Source: an uncultured Pseudomonadota bacterium
Lineage (GTDB): Bacteria > Myxococcota_A > UBA9160 > PR03
Direction of reading: 5' to 3'
DNA length: 64,000 nucleotides
Assembly: GCA_900696485.1 (NCBI GenBank)
Contig: CAADGG010000013.1
Span: 124,015-188,014 of the forward strand
The translations under genes were made by a program, and so were the position numbers. Below are positions 41,375 through 54,563 of this stretch, in pieces. Every line of letters starts with the position of its first letter. Position 1 is the first letter of the stretch. The notes under the pieces are model-generated. The model worked only from the letters and a program-made list of their open reading frames with translations, was not told where the DNA came from and did not search any database.

Positions 41375-41751
41375 GCGAAGGCCGGAACGGCCGGCGCCCG
41401 GGGTGCGCTCCGAGGCGTGTCGATGGAAGTGACGATCGCCGAACATCTCGATTCTCTCGAAGAGGCCCCGAAGCGCAGCGCCGCATCCGACGAAGCCCCG
41501 CGGCGCTCCGGAAACCACGCGTGGACTCCGCTGTCTGCGCCGACCGCGGCGCTGGACCCCGATCCTCCCCGGCGTTCGCGCATCGACGCGCGCCTCCTCG
41601 AATGCGTGGCTCGCTGGCGACACTGCCTGCCGACCGGAACACTGCAACGATCCAGGATCGGGGCGACGCAGCTGCTCGGGGTGCTCGGGGTGCTCGGGGG
41701 GAACGAGCGCCGGGTGGTCCCGCGCCGGCGACGCCGTATCGTAACGCCTCC

Positions 41752-42750
41752 ATGTCGGAATGCCGCCCGCACGAACTCATGAATTTCCCCGAGGGGCAGG
41801 CGTTCACGATTGCGCATCTGTCGGACCTCCATGCCACCGACGTGCGCCTCGGCTCTCCGCGGGACGTGCTCGGCAAGCGCGCCCTCGGTTGGCTCTCCTG
41901 GCGGCACCGGCGCCGACACGAGCATCAAGCCTCGGTGCTTCGTGCGCTGATCGCGGATCTGCATCAGCGCGCACCCGACCACATCGCCATCACCGGGGAT
42001 CTCACGCATCTGGGGCTGCCGTCGGAAATCGCCGCCGCCACGAACTGGCTCGAGCGGATCGGACCCGCCGAGCAGGTCTCGGTCGTACCCGGGAATCACG
42101 ACGCCTACGCCGGTGCCGAAGGGGCCGAGCGCTGGCTCCCCTGGCGCCACTACATGGGAGACCTCGCCGGCCCGCCAGCCGACGCAGACGACGCAGACGC
42201 CGATGCACGCGGCTTTCCGTGGATCCGCCGGATCGGGGGCCACATCGCCCTGATCGGGATCTCTTCCGCACGACCCACCGCACCGTTGCTGGCGACGGGA
42301 CGGGTCGGCGCCCGGCAGCGCGCGCGCGTCGAGGCGCTGCTCGCAACGCTCGCGGCCGAGGGGCGGGTGCGCATCGTGTTGCTGCATCATCCCCCCGTCG
42401 CCGCCGGCCAGTCGCGCCGTCGTCAGCTCGATGACGCGGCGGAGGTACGCGCGCTGCTCACGCGCGCCGGCGCCGAACTGCTTCTGCATGGACACACGCA
42501 TGAGTGTCATGAGGGCGTCGTCCGGGGACCGCATGGCCCGATCCCGGTCCTCGGCGTCGCGTCCTCGTCATCGGCCGGGCCTCGGCCGGCCCGCCGCGCG
42601 CGCTACCGCCTGGTGCGCATCGTGCCGGAACGCGCAACGGACGGCACACCGCGATGCCGGATTTCCTGGCAGCTCCGCGGCTTCGACGCCGCCACGGGAG
42701 GCTTCGTCGCGGAGACGGAAGAGCCGGCGCTCGCGCACTCCGCCGGATAG
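41752..42750 (+). CDS. Calcineurin-like metallophosphoesterase
   Basis: ATG at 41752. 'IAHLSDLH', 'ITGDLTH', 'VPGNHD', 'LLHHPP', 'LHGHTH'. Confidence 0.8.
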   Translation: MSECRPHELMNFPEGQAFTIAHLSDLHATDVRLGSPRDVLGKRALGWLSWRHRRRHEHQASVLRALIADLHQRAPDHIAITGDLTHLGLPSEIAAATNWLERIGPAEQVSVVPGNHDAYAGAEGAERWLPWRHYMGDLAGPPADADDADADARGFPWIRRIGGHIALIGISSARPTAPLLATGRVGARQRARVEALLATLAAEGRVRIVLLHHPPVAAGQSRRRQLDDAAEVRALLTRAGAELLLHGHTHECHEGVVRGPHGPIPVLGVASSSSAGPRPARRARYRLVRIVPERATDGTPRCRISWQLRGFDAATGGFVAETEEPALAHSAG

Positions 42751-42792
42751 CCGGTCTGTCGCCGACGATCCCGCGTCCCGGAAGCGGGAGCG

Positions 42793-43596
42793 CTACGCTT
42801 CGCGCGTGCGCCGAGCGGCGAGCACGCGCGCTGCCGCTTCCAGATCGGCGGCGCTGTCCACATCGATCGCGCACTCCGCGAACGGCATCCGCACGGCGAC
42901 CACGTGCAGCCCCATCGCCGACGAGACGCGATCCACGGCGCCCTCGAGCGTCAGCCGACCGGTGGCGAAGCGCGCGAGCGCAAGCGGTCCGAACAACGCG
43001 ACCATCCGCCACGGCCGCTTGCGCATGCCCTCAGCGCGCATCCAGAAGCGCGCCGCCTCGGCGGCGCGCGGGGTGCGGAAGAAGAAGAGGTTGGCGCCCG
43101 TCACCGGCTCCTGGGCCAGCGGAACGAAGGTGCGGCGCACGTGCGGAAAGCGGGAGCGAAACAGCGACGCCTCGACCACGGCGACCGCCAGATCACGTCC
43201 GGTTTCCCGAGCCGCCGTGAGGAAGTGGCGAATCATGGCCGGCGTCAGGAGCGGATGATCTGCGGTGGTGACGAGGGTCGGCCCGGCACCGGGCTCGCGG
43301 ACCAGGAAATCGTACACGCTGGCCGCCGGCGAGCTGGCGCTCGGGTGGTGGCGCAGCCAGCCCTCGGCGACCCACGCGCGCAGGTTCGGCGTGGCTTCCA
43401 GCAGGGCCGGGTCTCCGGCGCTCACCGACACCGTCGGCGCACCGATCGCTTCGCGCAGACAGCCGAGCACGCGTTCGAGCATCGGCTGGCCTCCCACCTC
43501 GACCAGCGCCTTGGTCGCGGCCGGCAGGCCCATCTCGCCCTCTCCGGCCCGGCGGCCGGCGAGCACCAGAACGCGTTCGACGTCGCTCTCGCTCAT
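42793..43596 (-). CDS. MobA-like NTP-transferase family nucleotidyltransferase
   Basis: ATG at 43596. 'VLVLAGRRAGE......KALVEVGGQPMLERVL' is an N-terminal nucleotide-binding loop. Confidence 0.65.
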   Translation of the reverse strand: MSESDVERVLVLAGRRAGEGEMGLPAATKALVEVGGQPMLERVLGCLREAIGAPTVSVSAGDPALLEATPNLRAWVAEGWLRHHPSASSPAASVYDFLVREPGAGPTLVTTADHPLLTPAMIRHFLTAARETGRDLAVAVVEASLFRSRFPHVRRTFVPLAQEPVTGANLFFFRTPRAAEAARFWMRAEGMRKRPWRMVALFGPLALARFATGRLTLEGAVDRVSSAMGLHVVAVRMPFAECAIDVDSAADLEAAARVLAARRTREA

Positions 43597-43669
43597 GGCC
43601 GCGCAGCGTAGCCGCAGCCTCCGGAGCCCGCCGCGGATCGGCTCCGGCCGCCGGCTCGCCGCCAGTCGG

Positions 43670-44698
43670 CTACGGACCCGGCGCAGCCGGCTCGAACCGC
43701 GCCGCCTCGGCCCAGCCGCGGGACTCATGACGCTGTCCGTCCGCTTCGAGCAGCAGCCCGGCGCGGTCCCTGCTGGCGTCCAACAGCGCGATCCCCTCGG
43801 CCGGCGGCAGGACCAGCAGCGCTTTCGACAGCGCCTCGGCCCATGCCGCAGTCGGCGCCAACACGACAGCCTGGGCCGCGTGCTGCAGGGGCGCCCCGGT
43901 GCGCGGATCCAGCACGTGGCCATAGCGATGCCCGGCGATCTCGATCCCCTGCCCGACACTCCCGGACACCGACAGCGCGCGATCTCGCAGCGTGGCGATG
44001 CCGGCATAGCCGCCGGCCGGCGTCCGGACCAACAGTCGCCAGCCCGCCTCCCCGGGCGGCGCCCCGATCGCCCACACACTGCTCTGTCCGAACGACAGCA
44101 GCGCGCTCCGGATCCCCGCCGCGCGCAGCGCCTCCGCGATCCGATCGAGCGCCCAACCCTTGGCGATGCCGCCGAGTTCGAGGCGCGCGCCGGGGGAGAC
44201 GAGTTCCGCGGTGCTCGCGTCGAGGTCTACGCGGAGCCCGTCGGCGCCGACGGCCGCCAGCGCACCCGCACGGGCCGCCGCACTGGGCAGCTCGTTCCGC
44301 TGGCCGGCGGTCCGCCAGAGTTCGACCAGCGGCCCGACGGTGATGTCGAAGGCACCGCGCGTCCGGCGCGTGAACTCCTTCGACGCGGCGAGCACGCGAG
44401 CCAGCTCCGGATCGACATCCTGCGGTCCCTGCCCCGCCGCGGCGTTGAGCCGCATCAAGGCACTGCTCGCCTCCCAGTTCGTCAGCAGCGCCTCGAGTTG
44501 GGCGGCGGTGGCAAACGCCTGCTCCGCGAGCGCCCGCCCCCGGGCCTCGTCCGGCGCCAGCAGCGTCAGCTCGAGCACCGTGCCCATCGCGTAACGGCCG
44601 TCCGACACGAGGACCGGCGCATCCGCCGGCTGCGCCGGCCCTCGCGCACACGCCGCGAGCACCAGCGCGCACGCGAGCACGGCGGCGCCGCGCGTCAC
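43670..44698 (-). CDS. apbE: FAD:protein FMN transferase ApbE, lipoprotein
   Basis: The GTG at 44698 overlaps the upstream stop (GTGA). Lipobox 'LVLAAC'. 'YAMGTVLELTL', 'GAFDITVGPLVELW', 'LGGIAKGWALD'. Confidence 0.85.
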   Translation of the reverse strand: MTRGAAVLACALVLAACARGPAQPADAPVLVSDGRYAMGTVLELTLLAPDEARGRALAEQAFATAAQLEALLTNWEASSALMRLNAAAGQGPQDVDPELARVLAASKEFTRRTRGAFDITVGPLVELWRTAGQRNELPSAAARAGALAAVGADGLRVDLDASTAELVSPGARLELGGIAKGWALDRIAEALRAAGIRSALLSFGQSSVWAIGAPPGEAGWRLLVRTPAGGYAGIATLRDRALSVSGSVGQGIEIAGHRYGHVLDPRTGAPLQHAAQAVVLAPTAAWAEALSKALLVLPPAEGIALLDASRDRAGLLLEADGQRHESRGWAEAARFEPAAPGP

Positions 44699-45189
44699 CC
44701 GCGATCGCTGGCGCCGGGGCGGCGGAAGACGGCCCACAGCGACAGCCCCACCAGCGCCGCGAGGCTCGCCTGCAACGAGACGAAACCCAACACCTTGGTC
44801 CAAGCGAAGATCGGATCGGCGAAGCGGACGCCCCAGCCCGAACCCTCGTCCAGCAGCGCCGAAGCGAACGGAAACGCGATCAGCCACGCCCGCACGCGCC
44901 CCGAGAGCGGCACGAAGAGCATCAGGTGTGTCATCACCAGCAGCAGCATTCCCATCGCGAACAGATGGAAGTGCGACATCTCGAGCAGCCCCTGATAGGA
45001 GCGCGGCTGCAGGAACTGCTCCTCGGAACCGAGGTAGTAGTGAACGACGGACGACGGCGCGAGGCTCATCTTCTGGAAGTACAGCAGGCCGTTGGTCACC
45101 CACAGCAGCGCGACGTACACGCAGTACAGAACGATGATCGTCTGCAGCAGCCGGTTCCGACTCCACTCCCCGGTGATCACGAATCGCAT
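44695..45189 (-). CDS. Uncharacterised 4-TM membrane protein with conserved-looking His residues
   Basis: 164 aa with four hydrophobic helices. His residues in 'VVHYYLG', 'EMSHFHLF' and 'VMTHLMLF'. It is translationally coupled to apbE. Confidence 0.65.
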   Translation of the reverse strand: MRFVITGEWSRNRLLQTIIVLYCVYVALLWVTNGLLYFQKMSLAPSSVVHYYLGSEEQFLQPRSYQGLLEMSHFHLFAMGMLLLVMTHLMLFVPLSGRVRAWLIAFPFASALLDEGSGWGVRFADPIFAWTKVLGFVSLQASLAALVGLSLWAVFRRPGASDRG

Positions 45190-45237
45190 GGATCTGCGCC
45201 TGCCTTCCGTCCGCGGTCCCTGGGCTCGGGCCGGGGA

Positions 45238-45801
45238 TCAGCCGCCCTGGCGCACGAGAATCTGGTGCAAGGCTAGCGCGCGGCGTACGCCACCGGTCAC
45301 CGCCTGGGACGACAGTGTGGAGCCGGCGATGCCGTGAACGTCGCGCTGCAAGCGCAGCGGAGCCGCCCCGTCCTTGCCTTCGAACTGATGCAGCCAGCGC
45401 TCCGGCGGCATGTACTCCGGGGGCTCGTAGAAGGCCAGCACACGCAGTCGTTCGACGCTTCCATCCGCCGTGAGGACGACGAGGAACGCCTCCGGCAGCG
45501 TGCGGACGATGTGTTGATCGATGAACGCGTAGCCGAGCACCTGGTCACCCCGTAGGGCGGTGAACAGCCGCACCAGCTTGGTCTCGAGCTTCGTGCGAGA
45601 GAGCGCTTCGACGCGCTGCACCTGGTCATCGGTCAGCACGAAGCTCCGGGATTCGACGTGCTCGGCCTCCGGGAACGCCCAGTCGAGCGCCTCCTGTTGG
45701 CTCATCAGCAAGCCGGCCCCGGCCGGCGTGGCGCTGGCGAGAGCCAGCGCGCACGCCACGGCCGCCGCCGCGGGAAAGTCAGAACGCCACGCCAAAGCCA
45801 A
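45238..45801 (-). CDS. Periplasmic FMN-binding (FMN_bind) domain protein, predicted ApbE substrate
   Basis: C-terminal 'VHGIAGSTLSSQAVTGGV' resembles the flavinylation motif (S/T)GA(S/T) of NqrC/RnfG. The TTG at 45801 (or 45795) gives the signal peptide 'ALAWRSDFPAAAAVACALALASATPAGA'. The start is uncertain. Confidence 0.65.
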   Translation of the reverse strand: MALAWRSDFPAAAAVACALALASATPAGAGLLMSQQEALDWAFPEAEHVESRSFVLTDDQVQRVEALSRTKLETKLVRLFTALRGDQVLGYAFIDQHIVRTLPEAFLVVLTADGSVERLRVLAFYEPPEYMPPERWLHQFEGKDGAAPLRLQRDVHGIAGSTLSSQAVTGGVRRALALHQILVRQGG

Positions 45802-47104
45802 GCTGCACCTCGTCTGCGATGTCGCCCTGATCCGCGTCGAAGTTCCGGTAGTCGAATTTGAACACGACGTTCGGATGGGGCTTGAGGGAGAGTCCGGACG
45901 TGATGAGACGGATGTCCTTCGAGCCGTCGGCCGCAAAGCCGGACGGCGTGCTCTGCTGGGTATCGAAACGCTCGTAGCGCAGGAACGGAGCCAGATAGAA
46001 GCCGCTGTCGGGGGCGATCCACGGCATCACGTCGTAGGCCGCCTCGACGTACCAGCCGAACATCTCGTCGGCGATCACCTCGTTTGCTTTGATCTCGCCC
46101 ATCCCGCGCAGCGCCAGCGTGAGATCGTCGGCCTCGTCGAGGAAGGCCTGGGTCACGAGCGCGCGCAGCTCGAGTCCGAAGCGGCGGTATTGCGCGTGCG
46201 CTTCCCACATCGCCAACGAGGCGCTAGGGAAGCCGTCTCGCGCCTGATCGACGCCGCCGTAGTAGAACGAGCCGCCGAACAGCGAACCCGGCAGCGCCGT
46301 CGGCGTGTAGTCGACGCGGATCACCCCGGCGAGATCTTCCGCCCGGGACCGGTTGCCGTTCGAGCGGGATCCGCGCAGGCTGCTGGCCGACAGACCGAGC
46401 GCATCGAGGCCGGTCACGACGTAGCTGCGATACTCGAGCTGCTCGCCGATGCGTCCATAGAGCCCCACTCCGTTCTCCCGCCACGTCGACGGGATGATCC
46501 GCTGCTCCACCTCCGGGCGCGCGACGCCGTGGAAGAACGGCGGCTCGTGCACCTCGTTGACGAAGCCCATCGGCACCAGCACCAATCCGGTGCGCAGATT
46601 CGCCCACTCGCTCAGCATCCAGTCGAGCGCCGCGAACTCCACCGCCACCTCGCCGGCCTGGCCATCGAGGTTCTCTGCCGTCTTCGCGTGCTCGAACTCG
46701 ATCTCGGTGTTGAAGACCAGCTTGTCGGTGAACTTGTAGCCGACGTAGAGCACGGTACGGAGTGCGTCGGCCGTATCGACCTTGCTGCTCCGGCCGTCGT
46801 TGACGAAGCTGCGGTAGTAACCTTCCGCATAGCCGCCGATCGACAGCCCCTGCGCGACCCCGTAGATCTTCGACGCCGCCGGTCCGAGTCCACCGAAGCT
46901 CTCGAGGTCGCGCTCCTCGGGTACGGCCTGCTCGGTGCGCAGCTTGACCAGCTCGTCCGTCAGCACCTCGACCTTCCGCTCGAGCTCTCCGATGCGGTCC
47001 TGCCGCGCCAGCTCGGCGTCGTCCGCTGCCACCACGCCACCCGCCAGCACGCCGGATGCCACCGCCGTCACCAGGATCCCGATCCTGCTCGCTCGCTCAC
47101 GCAT
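45779..47104 (-). CDS. Outer-membrane beta-barrel porin-like protein with an N-terminal coiled coil
   Basis: ATG at 47104. Signal 'ILVTAVASGVLAGGVVAA', coiled coil 'ELARQDRIGELERKVEVLTDELVKLRTEQ', alternating beta-strand pattern, and the C-terminal 'LGFGVAF' ending in Phe. Confidence 0.75.
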   Translation of the reverse strand: MRERASRIGILVTAVASGVLAGGVVAADDAELARQDRIGELERKVEVLTDELVKLRTEQAVPEERDLESFGGLGPAASKIYGVAQGLSIGGYAEGYYRSFVNDGRSSKVDTADALRTVLYVGYKFTDKLVFNTEIEFEHAKTAENLDGQAGEVAVEFAALDWMLSEWANLRTGLVLVPMGFVNEVHEPPFFHGVARPEVEQRIIPSTWRENGVGLYGRIGEQLEYRSYVVTGLDALGLSASSLRGSRSNGNRSRAEDLAGVIRVDYTPTALPGSLFGGSFYYGGVDQARDGFPSASLAMWEAHAQYRRFGLELRALVTQAFLDEADDLTLALRGMGEIKANEVIADEMFGWYVEAAYDVMPWIAPDSGFYLAPFLRYERFDTQQSTPSGFAADGSKDIRLITSGLSLKPHPNVVFKFDYRNFDADQGDIADEVQLGFGVAF

Positions 47105-47406
47105 GGAGCCCCTCCGCCTCGATCTCGTCGAGGAGTTCGGGGCTCGGGGTTCGCGACCGCTGGCCTCTCTGGTTGTATCGAAACCGAGCAGGGCGTCGTC
47201 TCGCGACGCGCCTCCTCGAGCGCAATCACCTGGGTGCGCTTGCAGCGCCGGCACTTCAGCTCGACGCCGCCAGGGACGAGCCGCGCCAGCAGACTCCCGC
47301 AACGGCAGCGACAGGACGCGGCGCCGCCGTCCGTCGGGTCTCCCGATCGACAGGCATCCGGCCGATCGGCAAGCGATCGGGGCTCGTGGCGCGTCTCGGC
47401 TCGCAC
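47068..47406 (-). CDS. Possible Com-like zinc-ribbon small protein (extent uncertain)
   Basis: 'CRCRCGSLLARLVPGGVELKCRRCKRTQV' matches the Mu Com-family pattern C-x2-C-x2-LL...(I/V)E(I/L)KC.RCK. G/C bias at third positions decays after the ribbon, and the ORF tail overlaps the porin start by 37 nt. Confidence 0.3.
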   Translation of the reverse strand: MRAETRHEPRSLADRPDACRSGDPTDGGAASCRCRCGSLLARLVPGGVELKCRRCKRTQVIALEEARRETTPCSVSIQPERPAVANPEPRTPRRDRGGGAPCVSERAGSGSW

Positions 47407-47537
47407 GGCGTGCAGGATCCTTCCCGGTTTCCGTTCCGTCGGAGGCCAATGTCGGAGGGCAATCTCTCGACCGGGCTGTTTTTCGATCGGCTTTGTCAGA
47501 ACTCGACTATGAAAACGACTTTCATTTTCTTCAGGTC

Positions 47538-47567
47538 ACTGTATCCATTGAAATGCCGGATCGTCAA
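47538..47567 (-). promoter_or_regulatory. Candidate sigma70-type promoter on the minus strand (TTGACG-18 nt-TACAGT) in an AT-rich island
   Basis: The reverse complement of 47562-47567 is TTGACG and of 47538-47543 is TACAGT. It lies upstream of the Com-like/porin operon. Confidence 0.3.
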
Positions 47568-47585
47568 GACCAGCCTCCCTGAAAC

Positions 47586-47625
47586 GCCGTGCGGCCAACC
47601 CGGGTCTCCGGGTTGGCCGCACGGC
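47586..47625 (-). terminator. Perfect 18-bp-stem hairpin 25 nt downstream of the PEP-CTERM gene stop
   Basis: gccgtgcggccaacccgg-gtct-ccgggttggccgcacggc. On the minus strand it is followed by GTTTC, which is a weak U-tract. Confidence 0.55.
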
Positions 47626-47649
47626 CGGCAGCAGAACTGGCGGATGAGT

Positions 47650-48411
47650 TCAGATCCGGCGGCGCCGGGCGCCCAGCATGGCCAGCGCACCGAAGGCGCA
47701 CAGCACGCTTGCGAGCCCGCCCGGCTCCGGCACCTCCAACGCGAGGATCCCGAACGCCGGGATCAGGTCCAACGGCGCGGCGAGGCTCGTTTCGACCAGG
47801 ATCGGCGTCACGAGCCGCACGGTGAGAAACCCGTCCCCGCCTGGCGCCGGAGCAACCGAGCCGGACTCGGACACGCTGCCGACGGACGTGGACCCCGTCG
47901 TCCACGGGGCGCCGGTCAAGCTGACCGCGATGAAGGAGCCGGCGTTCGAGACGGAACCGCCTTGCCCGACGACATCGAGCGGGAGATCGAGGAAGGAGGT
48001 CTGACTCGGGTCATCGCACGAAACGAACAAGCAGACGTTGAACGTCCCGCCGATCGCCATCGGGCCCTCGACGGCGCCCCCAGCGAAAGACGCGAAGAGG
48101 CCCGGGCCGGTCTGGACATCGAAGATCTCGATGCCGGTGACGAATGGGATCCCGGAGACCGGCACGGTGACCTCGTCCGCGGCGAACAGCCCGGCCGGGA
48201 GCGCGAGGCTCCGCAGCGCGGTCTCGGTCCGCGCGCCGGTGACGAGGAGTCCGTCCACGTTGCCGTCCGTCGGGATCTCGAGGGCAGGCACGCCGCGGAT
48301 CTGGATCTCGAGCGACGCCTCGCGGATCGGCAACTGGCCCGCCTCGGCCGGCGTCGGGACGAGGCCGAACCCGACCCCTGTCACGCAGAGCACCAACGTT
48401 CTGGCGCGCAT
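47650..48411 (-). CDS. PEP-CTERM sorting-domain secreted protein
   Basis: ATG at 48411. Signal 'MRARTLVLCVTGVGFGLVPTPAEA'. The C-terminus 'VPEPGGLASVLCAFGALAMLGARRRRI' has PEP, a TM helix and a basic cluster. Confidence 0.8.
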   Translation of the reverse strand: MRARTLVLCVTGVGFGLVPTPAEAGQLPIREASLEIQIRGVPALEIPTDGNVDGLLVTGARTETALRSLALPAGLFAADEVTVPVSGIPFVTGIEIFDVQTGPGLFASFAGGAVEGPMAIGGTFNVCLFVSCDDPSQTSFLDLPLDVVGQGGSVSNAGSFIAVSLTGAPWTTGSTSVGSVSESGSVAPAPGGDGFLTVRLVTPILVETSLAAPLDLIPAFGILALEVPEPGGLASVLCAFGALAMLGARRRRI

Positions 48412-48654
48412 GCCCCCCCTCCGGCTCGGTCCGCACGGCCCCGAGAGGACGATACCAGTCATTTCCCCGGAGCTCAGGCGCCGGCCGGAAAATAAAGGCC
48501 CGGGGCTCGCCGATCTCGCGAGTCCCGGGCCTCCCTGGGAAGGGGATGTATTCGTGCTGTCATGGAGGAAGTGGCCCGCCCACCAGAAAGGTGTCACGGG
48601 CGGCAGAAAAAAATCGGTGAACCGAAAAAAAACCTGGGGGCGGGTCCGTCCCGT

Positions 48655-49191
48655 TCACTCGGGCGGCAGCTCCGACTCCACCGTGAGGATCAGTTTCCCG
48701 CCCTGATAGCGATCGACGCCGATCACGACGGGCCGGCGATCCGGCAGGCGCATGTCCGTGTGGAGCGTGTTCTCGATGTCCACGGCGAGCAGGACACCCG
48801 CGGGGCCCAGGTGCAGCGGCCGGACCCGGACGCGTTTGCCCGACGGCAGGTCGAGACCGCCGATCTCGCCGGTCCGGAGGCTCAGGCGGCGCCGTTCGAT
48901 CACGCGGAGGCTCTCGTAACGGAACTCGTCGCGCAGGCTCTCGTGCAGCCGAGCCGCCGCGGGATCCACCGGCCCGGGATGTGAGGAGGCATGGCTGACC
49001 GTGAGACTCAGGCCGACACGTCGGGCCTGCTGCGCCGAAGCCGGAGCGGAGCCCAGCAGGGCGAGCGCCACGAGCACGCCGGCGACCGGAGCGAGACGCC
49101 ACGGCGGTTCCGAGCCCGGTCCCGATCGCCGACTCCCCAGTCGTCCAGCTCCCAGCGGTGTGGTGCGGATCCCGCGCTCAGATCCAGACAC
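48655..49191 (-). CDS. Secreted hypothetical protein downstream of the sigma/anti-sigma pair
   Basis: 178 aa with signal 'VAGVLVALALLGSAPASA'. The start overlaps the anti-sigma end by 14 nt. Confidence 0.55.
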   Translation of the reverse strand: MSGSERGIRTTPLGAGRLGSRRSGPGSEPPWRLAPVAGVLVALALLGSAPASAQQARRVGLSLTVSHASSHPGPVDPAAARLHESLRDEFRYESLRVIERRRLSLRTGEIGGLDLPSGKRVRVRPLHLGPAGVLLAVDIENTLHTDMRLPDRRPVVIGVDRYQGGKLILTVESELPPE

Positions 49192-49681
49192 TCGTCGACT
49201 CCTCCACCGCCTGCCCGCGATCGTCGTCCATCAGCCAGATGATGGTCGCATCGGTCGGACCGTCGAGCACCATGACCGGCCGGCCGTGGGTATTGAGGGA
49301 GCGCACGACCGTCTGCGGCGTTGCGCCGAAGAGCCGCGACCAGTCGGTCGGACCGCCGAGCAGGAGCGCTCCGACGAGCGCCGCCGCGGCGACACCGAGC
49401 GCCGGCATCGCAAACGCGGGGCGCGACCTGCGGCGCCGATCCGAAGCGGCCGGTCCGGAGGATCTCACCGGCAAGCACTGCTCGAGATCCCGCCAGAGGT
49501 CCGGCGTCGACGCGGCGCCGACCGCCTCCCGGACCCAGGCGCGCAGCGGCTCCATCCCGGCCAGCCGTTCGCTACATCCGGCGCAGCCGGCCAGATGGCG
49601 CCGGACTCGCCACTGGCGCAGACCGCGAAGCTCGCCGTCGTGATAGGCGTCCAGCCAGGGCCCGAGCCGTTCACAGCTCAT
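49178..49681 (-). CDS. Anti-sigma factor (zf-HC2 type), single TM
   Basis: The ATG at 49681 overlaps the sigma stop (ATGA). 'CERLGPWLDAYHDGEL......HLAGCAGC' is an H-x3-C-x2-C motif. TM 'ALGVAAAALVGALLLGG'. Confidence 0.75.
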   Translation of the reverse strand: MSCERLGPWLDAYHDGELRGLRQWRVRRHLAGCAGCSERLAGMEPLRAWVREAVGAASTPDLWRDLEQCLPVRSSGPAASDRRRRSRPAFAMPALGVAAAALVGALLLGGPTDWSRLFGATPQTVVRSLNTHGRPVMVLDGPTDATIIWLMDDDRGQAVEESTSVWI

Positions 49682-50592
49682 CGGGATCCTCCGCGATCCG
49701 AGTCCGGTGCGGTCGTTCGGACCCGCTTCTCCCCCTGGCGCAGCAGCTCCTGGACTCGGCGCCGGGCGTAGTGCAAGCGGCTCATCACGGTTCCCTTCGG
49801 GATCTCGAGGGCAGCCGCGATCTCTGCATAGCTCAAGCCCTCGACCTCGCGCAGGATCAACGTCTCGCGTGCCGCATCGGGCAGATCGGCGATCGCCTGC
49901 GCGAGTGCGGCCCGCAGCTGCTCTCGCCCGAGCGCCTGCTCGGGGTCCTGCTCGTGCGCGCGAAAGACCTGCTCGTCGACGGGACGCGAGTCCGGCGCAC
50001 CGAGCTGCTCGAGATCCATCGATTCGGGGATCGCGACGATGCGAGACGAGCGATCCCGACGCCGCGCATCGAGACACAGGTTCATCACGAGCCGGTAGAG
50101 CCAGGTGTAGAAGCTCGAGCGACCCTCGAAGCGATCGAGATTCACGTAGGCCTTGAGGAAGGCATCCTGAACCGCGTCGCGGGCACGCTCCTCGTCGCGC
50201 AACACGCGCAGCGCAAGCCGGTAGGCACGGCCCTGGTAGCGCTCGACCAGGACACGGAACGATTCGGGATCCCCGCGCCGGGCTCCGTCGACCGCCTCGC
50301 GATCGCTGGGGTCCGATCCCTCGAGACGACTGGCTGCGATCGCCGTGCTCCCCTCCGCGCGCGCCGCGCGACCCGAACGGCCGATGCCCGGCCGGCCGCC
50401 CCCCGGACGGCCGCGGTCGGCACTGCCGGCATCATCGCGCGCCTCGGGCTCGCTCTCCAAATCCGCTCGCGCGACGCCTCGGATCCGCGCGGGATTCCGT
50501 GAACCCGATGACCGCTGGCGGATTCCGGAGCGCTCGGGCCCGGGCCACGCGCCAGACAGGGTCGGAAGCAGTGCAGTCGCAAAAGGGATCAT
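49678..50592 (-). CDS. ECF-type RNA polymerase sigma factor (N-terminal extent uncertain)
   Basis: 'FRVLVERYQGRAYRLALRVLRDEERARDAVQDAFLKAY', 'ARETLILREVEGLSYAEIAAALEIPKGTVMSRLHYAR'. The ~100 aa before region 2 are low complexity, so the true start may be internal. Confidence 0.8.
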   Translation of the reverse strand: MIPFATALLPTLSGAWPGPERSGIRQRSSGSRNPARIRGVARADLESEPEARDDAGSADRGRPGGGRPGIGRSGRAARAEGSTAIAASRLEGSDPSDREAVDGARRGDPESFRVLVERYQGRAYRLALRVLRDEERARDAVQDAFLKAYVNLDRFEGRSSFYTWLYRLVMNLCLDARRRDRSSRIVAIPESMDLEQLGAPDSRPVDEQVFRAHEQDPEQALGREQLRAALAQAIADLPDAARETLILREVEGLSYAEIAAALEIPKGTVMSRLHYARRRVQELLRQGEKRVRTTAPDSDRGGSR

Positions 50593-50806: not shown

Positions 50807-53500
50807 TCAGTGGGCCTCGCGCCAGTTCTTGCCCGATCCGACATCGACGACCAGCGGAACGTCGAGCGCGAACACGGACTCCATCTCGGTGCGGGCGAGC
50901 TCGCCGACGCGCCCCACTTCCTCGTCCGGTGACTCGAACACCAGTTCATCATGGACCTGGAGGATCATCCGCGCACGAAGCTTCGCCGCGCGGAGCGCCG
51001 CATCGACCGCGACCATGGCCTTCTTGATCAGATCGGCCGCCGTCCCCTGAACGACGCTGTTGACTGCCATCCGCTCGGCTGCGTTGCGCAACACCCGGTT
51101 GCGCGAGGCGAGATCCGGCAGGTAGCGCCGACGTCCGAGCAGCGTCTGCACGAAGCCGCGCTCCCGGGCGTGCTCGACGGTCTCGTCGAGAAACCGCCGC
51201 ACCCCGCGATAACGCGCGAAGTAGGCATCGATGGTCGACTGGGCGTCCGCCGCGGCGATGGCGAGTTGATTCGCGATCCCGAACGCCGTCGACCCGTAGA
51301 TGATCCCGAAGTTGATCGCCTTCGCGCGGGCGCGCTGATCGGGCGTGACGGCCTCCGGCGAGACCCCGAGCACGCCGGCCGCCGTGCGCCGATGGACGTC
51401 CCCGCCACTGCGAAACGCCGCGATCAGCTCTTCGTCCTGCGAGAAGTGCGCGAGGATGCGCAGCTCGACCTGCGAGTAGTCGGCGGACACCAGCGTCCAG
51501 CCCTCGCGCGGCACGAAGGCTTCACGGATCCGAACGCCTTCGGCGCTGCGGATGGGGATGTTCTGCACGTTCGGGTCCGACGCCGACAGGCGCCCCGTCG
51601 CCGCGCCGAGCTGATGGAAGGTGGGATGGATCCGGCCGGTCTTCGGATCGATCAACGGTGGCAGCGCGTCCACGTAGGTGCTCTTGAGCTTCGCGAGGCG
51701 GCGGTAGGCCAGGATCTTCGCGGGCAACGGATGCTGCGCGGAGAGCTGCTCGAGGACCACCTCGTCCGTGGAGTAGCCGGTCTTGGTCTTGCGCAGCACC
51801 GGAAGCTTCAGCTTCTCGAAGAGGATCCGCTGGAGCTGTTTCGGCGAGGCGATCTGGAACGACTCACCAGCGAGCGCATGGATCTCCGCCTCGATCCGGG
51901 CCAGCTCCCTCTGGTACTCGTGGGACAGCGTGGCGAGCGCCGCCTCGTCGACGCGCACCCCTTCGCGTTCCATCCGGGCCAGCACCGCGGCAAGCGGCAT
52001 CTCGATCCGGGTGTAGAGGTCGTCGAGGCCGTCGCGAAGCAACCGCTCTTCGAGGATCGGAAGCAGCTCCGCCACGGCGCACACTTCCTCCGCCGCCCAG
52101 GTCGCCGTCGCGTCGATCGGCAGATCCGCGGGCGGGATCGCCTTGGCGCCGCGGCCGACGAGGTCGCGCCACGCGGACAGGCGCCGGCCCAGATGCAGCG
52201 AGGCCAGAGCCGGCGTCGTCACGGCGGCGGCGGGATCGAGCAGAAACGACGCGATCGCGACGTCGCAGGCGGGGGCCGGCGGACTGCTGTCCCATTCACT
52301 GAGCCACGCGGCCAGCGGCTTGACGTCACGCCCACCCCAGGGACGCACGGCCACGACGCGTCCGACCCGTTCCGCCACCTGCTCGGCGCGCAGCGTCGAG
52401 CCATCGATCAGTGAGCGATGACCGAACGGCACGTAGGCGGCGGCGCGCTCGCCGAGCGCGAAGGCGAGCCCGATGGGTGGGGCCCGCAGGACGTTGTCGG
52501 CACCGCCGACGGGGATCGCAATCACCCGCGGCGCCGCCGAGACGCGCTCGAGCAGCGCGCGCAGCGCCGCTTCGTCGCGCGGGATCTCGACCGGCGTCGC
52601 CGCGGGCCCCGTCGCCGAGGCCTTCGCCGCCGCCGGGCCGGCCGCGGACGCGGAAGCCGGATCCCCGGCCTCGAGCTCGGCGAGCAAGCGCCCGAACTCG
52701 AGCCGGCGGAACAGGCCGCGCAGCGCTTCCCGATCGGGCTCGCGACGCACCAGCGCGTCGGGTCCGAACGGAAGCGCCACGTCGTCCTTCAGGGCCGCGA
52801 GCTGTTTGGACAGGCGTGCCTGTTCCGATTGCTCGCGCAGGGCATGGCGCGTGCGGGCCTGCGGAATCTCGTCGGCATGCGCCAGCAGGTTCTCGAGATC
52901 TCCCCACTCGGCGATCAGCTTGGCGGCGCCCTTGTCCCCGATCCCCTTCACGCCGGGGCTGTTGTCGCTCGGATCCCCGACCAGCGCCCGCACGTCGAGC
53001 ACCCGTTCGGGCGGGACGCCGAAGCGCTGTGTCACCTCGGCGGGGCCGTAGCGGCGATCCTTCATGGTGTCGAGGAGCTGCACCCGATCATCGACCAGCT
53101 GCATCAGATCCTTGTCCGTCGACAGGATCGTCGCACGCCAACCCTCCGGCAATCGTCGGACCAGCGTCGCGATGACGTCATCGGCTTCGACCCCCGGCAC
53201 TTCCAGCACCGGCAGGCGATACGCTTCCACCAGCTCGCGAACGGCCGGCTGCTGGGCGCTCAGATCCTCGGGCTGCGCATCGCGGTGCGCCTTGTACGCG
53301 GGGTAGATCTGTTCGCGAAACGGCGCCCCGCCGGGCGCGTCGAACACGACGACGACGTGATCGGGTCCTTCCTCACGCAGCACCTTGTTGACCATGTTGA
53401 CGAAGCCGTAGGCGGCGTTGGTGGGGACGCCGAGCGCCGTCCGCAGCGGAGGGATCGCGAAGAACGCGCGGTACAGGCAGTTCGCCGCATCGATGATCAC
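50807..53500 (-). CDS. polA: DNA polymerase I
   Basis: 5'-nuclease N-terminus 'IIDAANCLYRAFFA', a 3'-5' exonuclease-like middle region, and polymerase motifs 'DYSQVELRILAH', 'RRTAKAINFGIIYG' (seen as 'RARAKAINFGIIYG') and 'QVHDELV'. The start is uncertain: the GTG at 53500 is the only canonical start near the conserved N-terminus. Confidence 0.9.
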   Translation of the reverse strand: MIIDAANCLYRAFFAIPPLRTALGVPTNAAYGFVNMVNKVLREEGPDHVVVVFDAPGGAPFREQIYPAYKAHRDAQPEDLSAQQPAVRELVEAYRLPVLEVPGVEADDVIATLVRRLPEGWRATILSTDKDLMQLVDDRVQLLDTMKDRRYGPAEVTQRFGVPPERVLDVRALVGDPSDNSPGVKGIGDKGAAKLIAEWGDLENLLAHADEIPQARTRHALREQSEQARLSKQLAALKDDVALPFGPDALVRREPDREALRGLFRRLEFGRLLAELEAGDPASASAAGPAAAKASATGPAATPVEIPRDEAALRALLERVSAAPRVIAIPVGGADNVLRAPPIGLAFALGERAAAYVPFGHRSLIDGSTLRAEQVAERVGRVVAVRPWGGRDVKPLAAWLSEWDSSPPAPACDVAIASFLLDPAAAVTTPALASLHLGRRLSAWRDLVGRGAKAIPPADLPIDATATWAAEEVCAVAELLPILEERLLRDGLDDLYTRIEMPLAAVLARMEREGVRVDEAALATLSHEYQRELARIEAEIHALAGESFQIASPKQLQRILFEKLKLPVLRKTKTGYSTDEVVLEQLSAQHPLPAKILAYRRLAKLKSTYVDALPPLIDPKTGRIHPTFHQLGAATGRLSASDPNVQNIPIRSAEGVRIREAFVPREGWTLVSADYSQVELRILAHFSQDEELIAAFRSGGDVHRRTAAGVLGVSPEAVTPDQRARAKAINFGIIYGSTAFGIANQLAIAAADAQSTIDAYFARYRGVRRFLDETVEHARERGFVQTLLGRRRYLPDLASRNRVLRNAAERMAVNSVVQGTAADLIKKAMVAVDAALRAAKLRARMILQVHDELVFESPDEEVGRVGELARTEMESVFALDVPLVVDVGSGKNWREAH

Positions 53501-53614
53501 GAGATGGTGGCGGGTGGCGGACAGGCTGGAACTCCGTCGTGGACTCGGAACGAGGCCGTCTCGATCGGGAACGTGCAGAAGACGCGGAGGAGCAGGAGAC
53601 CCGGAACGAGCACG

Positions 53615-53643
53615 TTGACCGGCGCACGGATCCTGCGTAGCGT
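53615..53643 (+). promoter_or_regulatory. Candidate sigma70-type promoter (TTGACC-17 nt-TAGCGT) 7 nt upstream of an ATG
   Basis: TTGACC at 53615-53620, TAGCGT at 53638-53643, ATG at 53651. Confidence 0.3.
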
Positions 53644-53650
53644 AGCCGGG

Positions 53651-53974
53651 ATGGGCGTCCCTCCGCGACCGCCGGCGCACCGGCAGCGTGCGGCGCCGGC
53701 GATGTTCCGGCCGCAGTTCACGCTGGTCGCGCTCTACTTCTTCGGCTTCTTCCTGTTCTTCTGTCTGGTGCTGGTGCTGCCGGCGCTGCTCGAAGGCCTG
53801 CGCTCGCTCCCGCCGAGCGAGGGGCCTCTCACGGAGCCGGAGCGCGAACTCGCGGCCGAACTCGCGCGCGATGCCCTGCGCGGCAGGATTCCGCTGGCGC
53901 TGCTCGCGACGGTGGCCGTGCTCGCCCTGGGGCTGTGGAAGCGGCTGTTGCCGGGCTTGCGTCCGCACCCGTGA
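53651..53974 (+). CDS. Small membrane protein (2 TM), hypothetical
   Basis: In-frame ATG at 53651 of ORF 52418..53974. 'FTLVALYFFGFFLFFCLVLVLPALL' and 'LALLATVAVLALGLW'. An ATG at 53702 is an alternative start. Confidence 0.5.
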   Translation: MGVPPRPPAHRQRAAPAMFRPQFTLVALYFFGFFLFFCLVLVLPALLEGLRSLPPSEGPLTEPERELAAELARDALRGRIPLALLATVAVLALGLWKRLLPGLRPHP

Positions 53975-54002
53975 CGGACGGCCGGACGCGCGCAGCCCGG
54001 GT

Positions 54003-54563
54003 TCAGCGCGAGCGCCCCCGGTAGTCCCGCGCGGTCTGCACGTACTCGAGCGCGCTCTCGCGCTGGCCGCGCAGCTCAGCTTCGCTGAGCGCGCGCACGA
54101 CACGTGCCGGAACCCCGCGTGCGAGGTGGCGCGCGGGGATCTTCGCACCCGGAGGCACCAGCGCACCGGCCGCCACGAGCGCCTCCTCCCCGACCTCCGC
54201 ACCGTCGAGCACGACGGCCGCGATGCCGACCAAGGCCCCGTCCCCCACCGTACAGCCGTGCACGGTGGCACGGTGACCCACCGTGACGCCGTCTCCGATC
54301 CACGCTGGGAACCGGTCCTTCGTCACATGCACCACGCAGTGATCCTGGAGGTTGGTCCGCGCGCCGATGTGGATCGCGTGGACATCCCCGCGCACGACGC
54401 AGCCGAACCAGACGCTGCTGTCGGCACCGATCTCGACGTCGCCTGCGACCACCACCCCCGGAGCGAGCCACGCCGAGGCGTCGATCCGGGGCCGGCGACC
54501 GCGAAACGGCAGCACCAGCGGAGGCGGCGCTTCGATCGTGGCGTCTCGATCAGACGTCGTCAC
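54003..54563 (-). CDS. Gamma-class carbonic anhydrase family / hexapeptide-repeat protein (YrdA/PaaY-like)
   Basis: '[41 protein letters not shown]' and left-handed beta-helix repeats. Confidence 0.85.

Follow-up and report, generated by a model that had tools for sequence, protein, structure and literature searches.

A window of 64,000 nucleotides (the whole stretch of DNA that was analyzed, from contig CAADGG010000013.1 of an uncultured bacterium) carries on its minus strand a row of genes in which a porin, a secreted FMN_bind protein, a small inner-membrane protein with four transmembrane helices (hereafter the 4-TM protein) and ApbE, the FAD:protein FMN transferase, stand side by side. 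Read along the minus strand, the order is promoter and Fur box, a Com-like zinc-ribbon gene, and then the porin, FMN_bind, 4-TM and ApbE genes (Table 1). The original prediction had reported five co-directional minus-strand genes at this place, the fifth being a MobA-like nucleotidyltransferase gene, and all of the features that it described are present at the positions it gave. As a unit, its porin, FMN_bind, 4-TM and ApbE genes stood; the MobA-like gene lies outside the module, and the operon begins upstream of position 47104. It had also stopped short of the control region, so that the Fur box, hence the link to iron, and the zinc-ribbon gene were missed. At ∼70% GC the list of open reading frames (ORFs) of the window is crowded with spurious overlapping frames; gene starts were picked by signal peptides, Shine-Dalgarno context and alignment of orthologs. 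The only metatranscriptome run containing the sequence gave a single flat 12-kb contig over everything and holds no information on the limits of the operon. The window proteins were searched against Pfam and NCBIfam, the 4-TM family was collected with phmmer, the zinc-ribbon protein was compared with PHROG, and comparisons with the PDB were made by profile (sequences) and by Foldseek (structures).

Table 1. Positions of the features discussed in the text, in window coordinates (TM2, second transmembrane helix).
Feature	Positions	Strand	Remarks
Sigma-70-like promoter	47538..47567	-	TTGACG, 18 nt, TACAGT; promoter-like match
Fur box, delta-proteobacterial type	47507..47527	.	Core TGAAAACGACTTTCA at 47510-47524; minus-strand reading AAATGAAAGTCGTTTTCATAG
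Small zinc-ribbon ORF, 112 aa	47068..47406	-	GTG start 47406; core CRCRCGSLLARLVPGGVELKCRRCKR encoded at 47313-47236
Outer-membrane beta-barrel porin, 441 aa	45779..47104	-	Signal peptide, N-terminal periplasmic coiled coil, C-terminal Phe
Secreted RnfG-like FMN_bind protein, 187 aa	45238..45801	-	TTG start 45801 or 45795 (uncertain); overlaps porin stop
4-TM inner-membrane protein, 164 aa	44695..45189	-	Family PF27139 (Aq_1264_TM); His50, 73, 75, 88
Conserved residues of the 4-TM protein	E70 44980-44982; H73 44971-44973; H75 44965-44967; H88 44926-44928	-	All on TM2
ApbE (FAD:protein FMN transferase) lipoprotein	43670..44698	-	GTG start; Pfam E=3.3e-65; lipobox LAAC
MobA-like NTP_transf_3 nucleotidyltransferase	42793..43596	-	Pfam E=2.4e-17; neighbor, outside module

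Relatives of the 4-TM protein were found in 227 species genomes (one genome per species was scanned) from Myxococcota, Binatia and Aquificota. The main comparison set of 82 loci consists of the best 80 of these 227 relatives, all metagenome-assembled genomes (MAGs) labeled Myxococcota, "Deltaproteobacteria" or Binatia, together with two others; the 4-TM proteins of the set are 64-87% identical to that of the window. In every one of these loci, except where a contig end interrupts it, an FMN_bind ortholog stands immediately upstream of the 4-TM gene. The porin gene lies upstream of FMN_bind in ∼70 of the 82, and apbE lies downstream of the 4-TM gene in 76 and is inverted in six. A second set of 80 soil and sediment metagenome loci, found with a single distant family member as query, represents another clade at ∼40-50% identity. 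Here the order porin, FMN_bind, 4-TM is kept, and apbE is placed downstream on either strand or upstream of the porin gene, or is absent. Members at 28-32% identity retain the same gene set. The synteny expected by the original prediction was thus borne out, the order porin/FMN_bind/4-TM being common to relatives across deep divergence. Because the order is kept in both clades and in the 28-32%-identical members, the predicted functional core is the porin, the FMN_bind protein and the 4-TM protein, with ApbE as the usual fourth member, and the arrangement is, judged from gene order, far beyond chance. A search for further conserved neighbors returned only fur, the zinc-ribbon gene and lineage-specific synteny as recurrent features. 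Additional recurrent ORF clusters in the related loci were rejected as mostly antisense artifacts of GC-rich DNA.

In an Mg2+-dependent reaction with FAD as the FMN donor, ApbE covalently attaches FMN to Thr or Ser residues of periplasmic FMN_bind domains, and such ApbE/FMN_bind pairs are often linked to membrane electron conduits. The FMN_bind assignment of the original prediction was confirmed by Pfam (PF04205, E=9.6e-6, 26.6 bits, over the gathering cut-off of 22). The segment HGIAGSTLSS holds Thr162 (codon ACA at 45316-45318), the predicted flavinylation site. A profile of the FMN_bind orthologs (alignment A4) matched the RnfG chain 9eri_G over nearly its full length (2.8e-10) and also 7zc6_G, and it aligned Thr162 with the Thr of ITGSTITS and ITGATITS in the solved RnfG proteins (note that the GST variant is present in 9eri_G as well). 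Thr162 therefore falls on the flavinylated Thr of RnfG, where the original prediction had put it, and the motif residue is conserved as 79 Thr and 1 Ser among 80 orthologs. The motif of the window clade reads H-G-[IV]-[AV]-G-[AS]-T; distant members have the canonical [ST]GAT or a [ST]G[AS]T-type motif, and a flavinylation motif was found in all distant contexts examined. The FMN_bind protein is likely flavinylated at Thr162 by ApbE. The protein has a cleavable-looking signal peptide and no evident membrane anchor. Its NCBIfam RnfG score was 15.1 bits (cut-off 102), and no other Rnf or Nqr subunit (RnfA/B/C/D/E, NqrA/B/D/E/F) was found in the operon or recurrently across the 82 genome and 80 metagenome loci.

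The ApbE protein matched its Pfam family (PF02424) over residues 38-310 with 220.7 bits (cut-off 25.6). The NCBIfam equivalog model gave E=5.6e-38 and 130.7 bits, under its 498-bit cut-off, and we therefore regard the protein as a family member and not as an E. coli-type equivalog. By inspection, the lipobox LAAC with Cys17 follows a hydrophobic N-terminus, which predicts an extracytosolic location. The start codon of apbE overlaps the stop codon of the 4-TM gene as GTGA (44698-44695), so that the two genes are translationally coupled; both the lipoprotein nature of ApbE and this overlap had been read correctly in the original prediction. Natural fusions of the 4-TM protein and ApbE exist (P0126, P0130, P0131 and P0195). 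One Rosetta-stone protein carries two 4-TM repeats fused to ApbE, and genes for a porin-sized protein and an FMN_bind protein lie just upstream of it. A gene of the AurF-like di-iron oxygenase family (PF11583, E=6.7e-15) was observed just downstream of apbE in 11 loci (e.g., L018:2080-3189).

The barrel with an N-terminal coiled coil and a terminal Phe, described earlier from the sequence, was recovered in the porin: after the signal peptide an a/d heptad stretch covers approximately residues 30-58 (I38-L41-V45-L48-L52-L55), the N-terminus gave coiled-coil-type matches, and the chain ends in GFGVAF. In Pfam, the window porin matched KdgM and BBP2 below threshold (BBP2, PF07642, 11.5 bits vs. 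26.2) and gave no match to Porin_O_P (PF07396). Among 17 porin orthologs, BBP2 was matched by 8 (best 4.8e-5), Porin_O_P by 5 (best 1.7e-7) and OMP_b-brl by 4. The porin profile against PDB sequences returned marginal OmpX/Ail matches and one coiled-coil match only. Of the two barrel families named in the original prediction, porin O/P is thus weakly related through the orthologs, as is BBP2, and DUF3570 is not. A flavinylated barrel of the DUF3570 type (PF12094) was rejected: Pfam gave no DUF3570 match, and the porin is not such a barrel because it has no [ST]GA[ST] motif. The protein resembles OprO/OprP (Porin_O_P) and OmpL-like BBP2 proteins in the weak matches of its orthologs and in its C-terminal Phe; it differs from them in scoring below the gathering threshold, in its N-terminal coiled coil and in its acidic and His invariant residues. 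The invariant positions (alignment A3) include E134, E136, E138, H139, E156, D161, H186, E187 and E200, and these acidic and His residues hint at a cation or metal selectivity of the porin.

The promoter listed in Table 1 is the sole promoter-like match in positions 42500-47800 (5.3 kb; shuffled sequence gives 0.1), and it lies immediately upstream of the Fur box. The box is an AT-rich palindrome amid GC-rich DNA, ∼420 nt upstream of the porin start. It has two mismatches to TGAAAATNATTTTCA and is the single such site in the 64 kb (0.11 expected). Just downstream of the -35/-10 pair, the predicted box is in the classical position of a repressor site. Across the related loci the consensus of the upstream element is AATTGAAAATNATTTTCAATT, and a Fur box is present within 700 nt upstream of the porin gene in 56 of the 63 loci having enough sequence. 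Loci that lack the porin have the box 40-55 nt upstream of FMN_bind. The density of boxes is 1.38/kb upstream of the module and 0.017/kb elsewhere in the loci, an 83-fold enrichment. In 23 loci the gene directly upstream of the box encodes a Fur-family protein (PF01475, E=1e-35). Because the box sits at the promoter, is kept in most of the loci and has fur as neighbor in part of them, the operon apparently belongs to the iron-starvation (Fur) regulon and is predicted to be under Fur control.

The box consensus obtained here is identical to the dFUR box WTGAAAATNATTTTCAW, which was derived from feoAB and fur promoters of delta-proteobacteria and alongside which Fur-regulated putative porins were noted (Rodionov 2004, PMC545781). 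Our locus resembles that regulon ("psp" porins; a porin before feoA-feoA-feoB2) in its operator and also in gene position, an uncharacterized porin being the first large gene behind the box. In Geobacter and Desulfuromonas, in contrast, the porin genes of the regulon stand with feoAB or alone, without FMN_bind, 4-TM or ApbE genes. In a Binatia locus (L077:9590-13440; also L073 and L075), three more Fur boxes were observed downstream of the module. The boxes in L077 precede two paralogous imelysin genes (Peptidase_M75, iron-uptake), which suggests that in Binatia the module and the imelysin genes may form a local iron-uptake island.

Between the Fur box and the porin gene lies the small zinc-ribbon ORF, which shares 37 nt with the porin start region. 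Its core CRCRCGSLLARLVPGGVELKCRRCKR is nearly invariant upstream of the porin gene in 28-30 related loci, and its tails are variable. No match was found in Pfam or NCBIfam; PHROG gave weak matches to gpCom/translational regulator (E=0.0035-0.095). The protein weakly resembles the zinc-ribbon translational activator Com of phage Mu in its CxC..C/CxxC ribbon and its basic KCRRCKR stretch. Unlike Com, it is encoded on a chromosome, as the first gene of an apparently iron-regulated operon, and roughly every second orthologous locus lacks it. Conceivable functions are those of a regulator, a Zn/Fe-binding protein or a rubredoxin-like donor.

The 4-TM protein is a member of family PF27139; the 120 matches listed for it (99% to ∼71% identity) all carry this family as a precomputed assignment. 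A 90%-clustered database holds 2417 homologs, and phmmer collected 461 clusters at 50% identity, among them the tandem member P0186 of Aquifex aeolicus (1.5e-22). It is the best-conserved protein of the module, and conservation extends around all faces of the helix that carries its invariant His and Glu. E70, H73, H75 and H88 are unchanged in 82 of 82 orthologs, and 26 diverse members share nearly invariant Y52, G54, E70, H73, H75, H88 and F108. An AlphaFold2 model of the monomer (pLDDT 93.2, pTM 0.86) has helices at residues 13-40, 65-90, 97-123 and 128-155 and a short periplasmic helix (45-53) in a conserved loop. The topology is N-in/C-in, on account of the positive-inside rule and of the ApbE fusions, in which an additional signal-anchor helix precedes the ApbE domain. 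It follows that E70, H73 and H75 are near the periplasmic end of TM2 and H88 near its cytoplasmic end. C-terminal fusions place the C-terminus in the cytoplasm as well: in P0166 (L088:1477-2730) the 4-TM part is followed by a DtxR-type Fe_dep_repr_C and a FeoA domain, with fur immediately downstream, and in P0137 (L089:138-947) by a PilZ (c-di-GMP) domain. These regulatory fusions suggest that 4-TM activity may be worth regulating.

In tandem proteins made of two 4-TM repeats (alignment A2; P0186, which is of the Aquifex aq_1264 type, P0150, P0193 and others), the conserved His residues are split between the repeats. Because of this split, the working unit of the 4-TM protein would seem to be a (pseudo)dimer in which the two TM2 helices together form a single asymmetric site. 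This site could hold one bis-His heme, or a metal bound by His and Glu. Single-domain proteins of a "repeat-1 type" (P0240, P0254) and of a "repeat-2 type" (P0236, P0262) also exist, which hints that heterodimers may be formed.

The original prediction had found no named system to which the gene combination could be assigned, and the combination indeed lies outside the classes listed by Meheust 2021 and Huang 2024. It has in common with known flavinylation clusters (NapH-like, MsrQ-like, PepSY-like, DsbD and NQR/RNF-like, PMC8238504; DUF4405/FezC, PMC11334425) that ApbE, a secreted substrate of the [ST]G[AS][ST] type and a small membrane protein are encoded in one operon, and it shares with them the recurrent ties to iron reduction or assimilation and to Fur control. 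It differs from those clusters in three respects: by Pfam the 4-TM protein falls in none of their membrane families, and it has no fold match; its conserved His residues are on one helix, where theirs are paired on two; and the porin is invariant here, whereas the word porin is absent from Meheust 2021 (PMC8238504). The 4-TM site likewise does not fit the classical two-heme, four-His wire of MsrQ, PepSY and DUF4405 proteins (PMC11334425). The FMN_bind protein is like RnfG/NqrC in its nearly full-length alignment and in the position of its Thr, whereas Rnf and Na+-NQR have further subunits that the operon lacks, and the protein here has a cleavable-looking signal peptide.

Several other systems are similar in part. 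Clusters of the P19/FTR1 (FtrABCD) type with FMN_bind genes (Meheust 2021) also link a periplasmic FMN_bind protein to iron import and likewise encode no obvious cytoplasmic electron donor; in contrast to them, our module contains a porin and has Aq_1264_TM as its membrane protein, and P19 and FTR1 domains are absent. In the DsbD/DUF3570/DUF4266 system (Meheust 2021), ApbE is also linked genetically to an outer-membrane beta-barrel, but that barrel is flavinylated at two [ST]GA[ST] motifs and the window porin has none. The Listeria locus for extracellular electron transfer (EET; FmnB/PplA/EetA/EetB/FmnA) shares with the module an ApbE-like enzyme, a flavinylated extracytosolic protein (in Listeria a reductase of ferric iron) and small membrane proteins, a few of which are involved in FAD traffic there. 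It differs in its membrane proteins and in having Ndh2 and DMK, which are not encoded here, whereas our organism is a diderm with a porin and with predicted Fur control. Full-text literature searches gave no description of aq_1264 or of a Fur-regulated FMN_bind/ApbE/porin system.

We tentatively favor, with slightly less than even confidence in the statement as a whole, the reading that the genes encode a Fur-repressed, envelope-spanning module for reductive iron acquisition, in which the 4-TM protein has an electron-supply role and re-reduces the flavin. When iron is scarce, Fur would leave the box, which overlaps the transcription start, and the operon would be expressed. In the periplasm, the lipoprotein ApbE would flavinylate the secreted FMN_bind protein at Thr162, taking the FMN from FAD. 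The porin, with its invariant Glu/His cluster, would let iron species into the periplasm, and there the covalent flavin would reduce Fe(III) to Fe(II), making the flavinylated protein a periplasmic ferric reductase. The 4-TM protein would be the obligate inner-membrane partner of this flavoprotein, probably as a dimer, and would most likely re-reduce the flavin from the quinol pool via a cofactor. This heme b or metal would be bound on TM2, by E70, H73 and H75 at the periplasmic end and by H88 near the other, cytoplasmic end. We infer the flavinylation, the ferric reduction, the porin substrate and, by analogy, the role of the 4-TM protein as a transmembrane electron conduit, which the original prediction had also put forward. 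The electron-supply role is favored because of the analogy with other flavinylation clusters, which have repeatedly been tied to iron reduction or assimilation and in which the FMN carrier is accompanied by a membrane-spanning protein for electron transfer (PMC8238504, PMC11334425).

A number of observations weigh against this account. The window 4-TM protein had no match at E≤1 in the local copy of Pfam, from which PF27139 is absent, and none in NCBIfam. The flavinylation-associated membrane families were tested as PF12801, PF01794, PF03929/PF16357, PF02683, NqrB/RnfD, PF14358 and FezC; in Pfam the 26 diverse 4-TM members returned no NapH-like, MsrQ-like, PepSY, DsbD, NqrB/RnfD or DUF4405 match, only single-member noise. 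A 4-TM profile found no match among PDB sequences. Foldseek against the PDB gave nothing at E≤0.001 for the monomer (best E 1.2, query-normalised TM-score ≤0.47), and for the model of a natural tandem protein of the Aquifex aq_1264 type (pLDDT 85.2, pTM 0.80) the best E was 0.19 with a query-normalised TM-score ≤0.25. The families which the original prediction had proposed for this protein (DUF4405, MsrQ and cytochrome b561-like) are therefore dropped, showing neither sequence nor fold relation to it. The protein has no two-helix His pairs such as those of the PepSY protein 7ABW, all of its conserved His being on TM2. In the tandems, repeat 1 keeps only H73 of the His residues and repeat 2 keeps H75 and H88, a split that, as read from the alignment, would leave at most one bis-His site, unlike the classical two-heme wire. 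The operon encodes neither a cytoplasmic electron donor nor a known Fe(II) transporter, and a fur gene was not found anywhere in the 64-kb window. The full ApbE substrate motif D-x-x-[S/T]-G-A-[S/T] (PMC12052999) is not present either, since the window reads H-G-I-A-G-S-T: position -6 is His (His in 68 of 80 orthologs, Asp in 10), position -3 is Ala (S or T in only 13 of 80) and position -1 is Ser (Ala in 60 of 80). A change of the Asp of the flavinylation motif to Ala was reported to have minor effects only (PMC12052999).

The main rival, which we consider unlikely and nevertheless worth serious attention, keeps the iron-uptake module and makes the 4-TM protein a new type of Fe(II) or divalent-metal permease instead of a conduit. 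E70, H73 and H75 would then form a periplasm-side metal site at the dimer interface, with H88 as a deeper site toward the cytoplasm, and for Fe(III) reduction the flavoprotein would draw its electrons from carriers whose genes lie elsewhere, a proposal also made for the FMN_bind genes of P19/FTR1 clusters. A Glu and three His along one helix are typical metal ligands, and the tandems keep one asymmetric set of them (repeat 1 has E70 and H73, repeat 2 has H75 and H88), which is what a single pathway at the pseudo-dimer interface would require. The predicted Fur control and the dedicated porin with invariant acidic and His residues agree with transport, as does the lack of any other iron transporter gene in the operon, and clusters of FMN_bind and permease genes without a local electron conduit are known (Meheust 2021, PMC8238504). 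C-terminal cytoplasmic regulatory fusions (DtxR-type with FeoA; PilZ) are also common in gated transporters, although this fusion evidence rests on single representatives. On the other side, the 4-TM protein has no similarity to any known transporter fold, its 164 aa are few for a permease, and the conserved unit would offer the flavoprotein no reductant. A reading that goes further, and that we find doubtful, is that Aq_1264_TM is an unrecognized inner-membrane iron-handling protein with a fold not in the PDB, which together with the dedicated metal-selective porin and the RnfG-like flavoprotein would form a self-contained, Fur-controlled, two-membrane reductive iron importer, a sixth and structurally new flavinylation-linked class. 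Within that reading, Aq_1264_TM might be an Fe(II) permease unrelated to Feo, FTR1, NRAMP, ZIP and VIT, or a combined redox-and-transport device.

Two further explanations appear improbable to us. The flavinylated protein and its membrane partner might replace an iron-rich periplasmic carrier (a c-type cytochrome or Fe-S protein) in respiration, an iron-sparing swap similar to that of flavodoxin for ferredoxin. Predicted Fur control of the module would fit such a swap, Fur-regulated flavodoxin is documented in delta-proteobacteria (PMC545781), and Meheust 2021 reports functional redundancy of flavinylation and cytochromes; however, a dedicated porin is strictly co-conserved with the module, an indication that a solute is moved, none of ∼170 loci links a respiratory oxidoreductase to it, and the same boxes precede nearby imelysin iron-uptake genes. 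Quite improbable as well is a maturation factor that stands outside the working cycle, where the 4-TM protein would export FAD and hand it to ApbE or would dock ApbE on its substrate. The GTGA overlap and the several independent 4-TM/ApbE fusions with a signal-anchor helix speak for it, the route of FAD to ApbE has been described as obscure (PMC12052999), and small membrane proteins of the Listeria EET locus traffic flavin for the ApbE-like FmnB (PMC9973259). The constant neighbor of the 4-TM gene is FMN_bind, however, and apbE is missing, inverted or relocated in many loci; the iron-sensor fusions and the strict porin linkage would stay unexplained, and His and Glu in a membrane core are not an obvious signature of flavin transport. 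Chance juxtaposition or mis-called ORFs might be suspected at 70% GC, where many spurious overlapping ORFs arise and some recurrent clusters are antisense artifacts. This reading is effectively refuted by the synteny data, with order and strand kept across >160 loci down to 28% identity, and strong domain matches, natural gene fusions and a common upstream operator speak against it too.

The MobA-like gene, counted as the fifth gene of the cluster in the original prediction, was rejected as a member of the module. A homolog lies beside the module in 0 of 82 genome and 0 of 80 metagenome loci and is absent even in the closest genome relative of the window, a Myxococcota MAG (L003, 87-88% identity); because none of the 82 related loci has it, we place it outside the module. 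It is separated from apbE by a gap of 73 nt. Its score for the MobA equivalog TIGR02665 was 18.9 bits (cut-off 151.85), so that only a generic NTP_transf_3 domain can be assigned, and its closest plasmid-borne relatives are annotated "nucleotidyltransferase family protein." The neighboring genes were read from their translations. A metallophosphoesterase-like ORF (41521-42750, plus strand) converges on the MobA-like gene and appears to be an ordinary housekeeping neighbor, as does a DNA polymerase I-like ORF at 50807-54271 (minus strand). The minus-strand region 47650-50592 contains an ORF with a PEP-CTERM-like tail (47650-48597), a 178-aa ORF and an overlapping ECF sigma/anti-sigma-like pair (49178-50592). 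The exact sequence of positions 43600-47600 was present in ∼20 metagenome runs from activated sludge, bioreactors and wastewater from 2017-2024 (100% of sampled words), and because of this recurrence the source organism is, by its sequence, apparently a persistent member of wastewater communities.

ApbE-flavinylated proteins are used outside the cytoplasm by approximately half of all bacteria, and many of the corresponding gene clusters are unassigned. To this repertoire the module contributes an obligatory porin and a membrane partner without a fold match, both placed in what is predicted to be the iron-starvation regulon. The fusions of the 4-TM protein with ApbE give a handle on how ApbE obtains FAD or is organized at the membrane. 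If the favored reading is true, the orphan family PF27139 (Aquifex aq_1264) would gain a function, and the module would offer a testable explanation of how abundant bacteria of soil, marine and wastewater habitats, most of them uncultured, reduce ferric iron in the periplasm and take it up.

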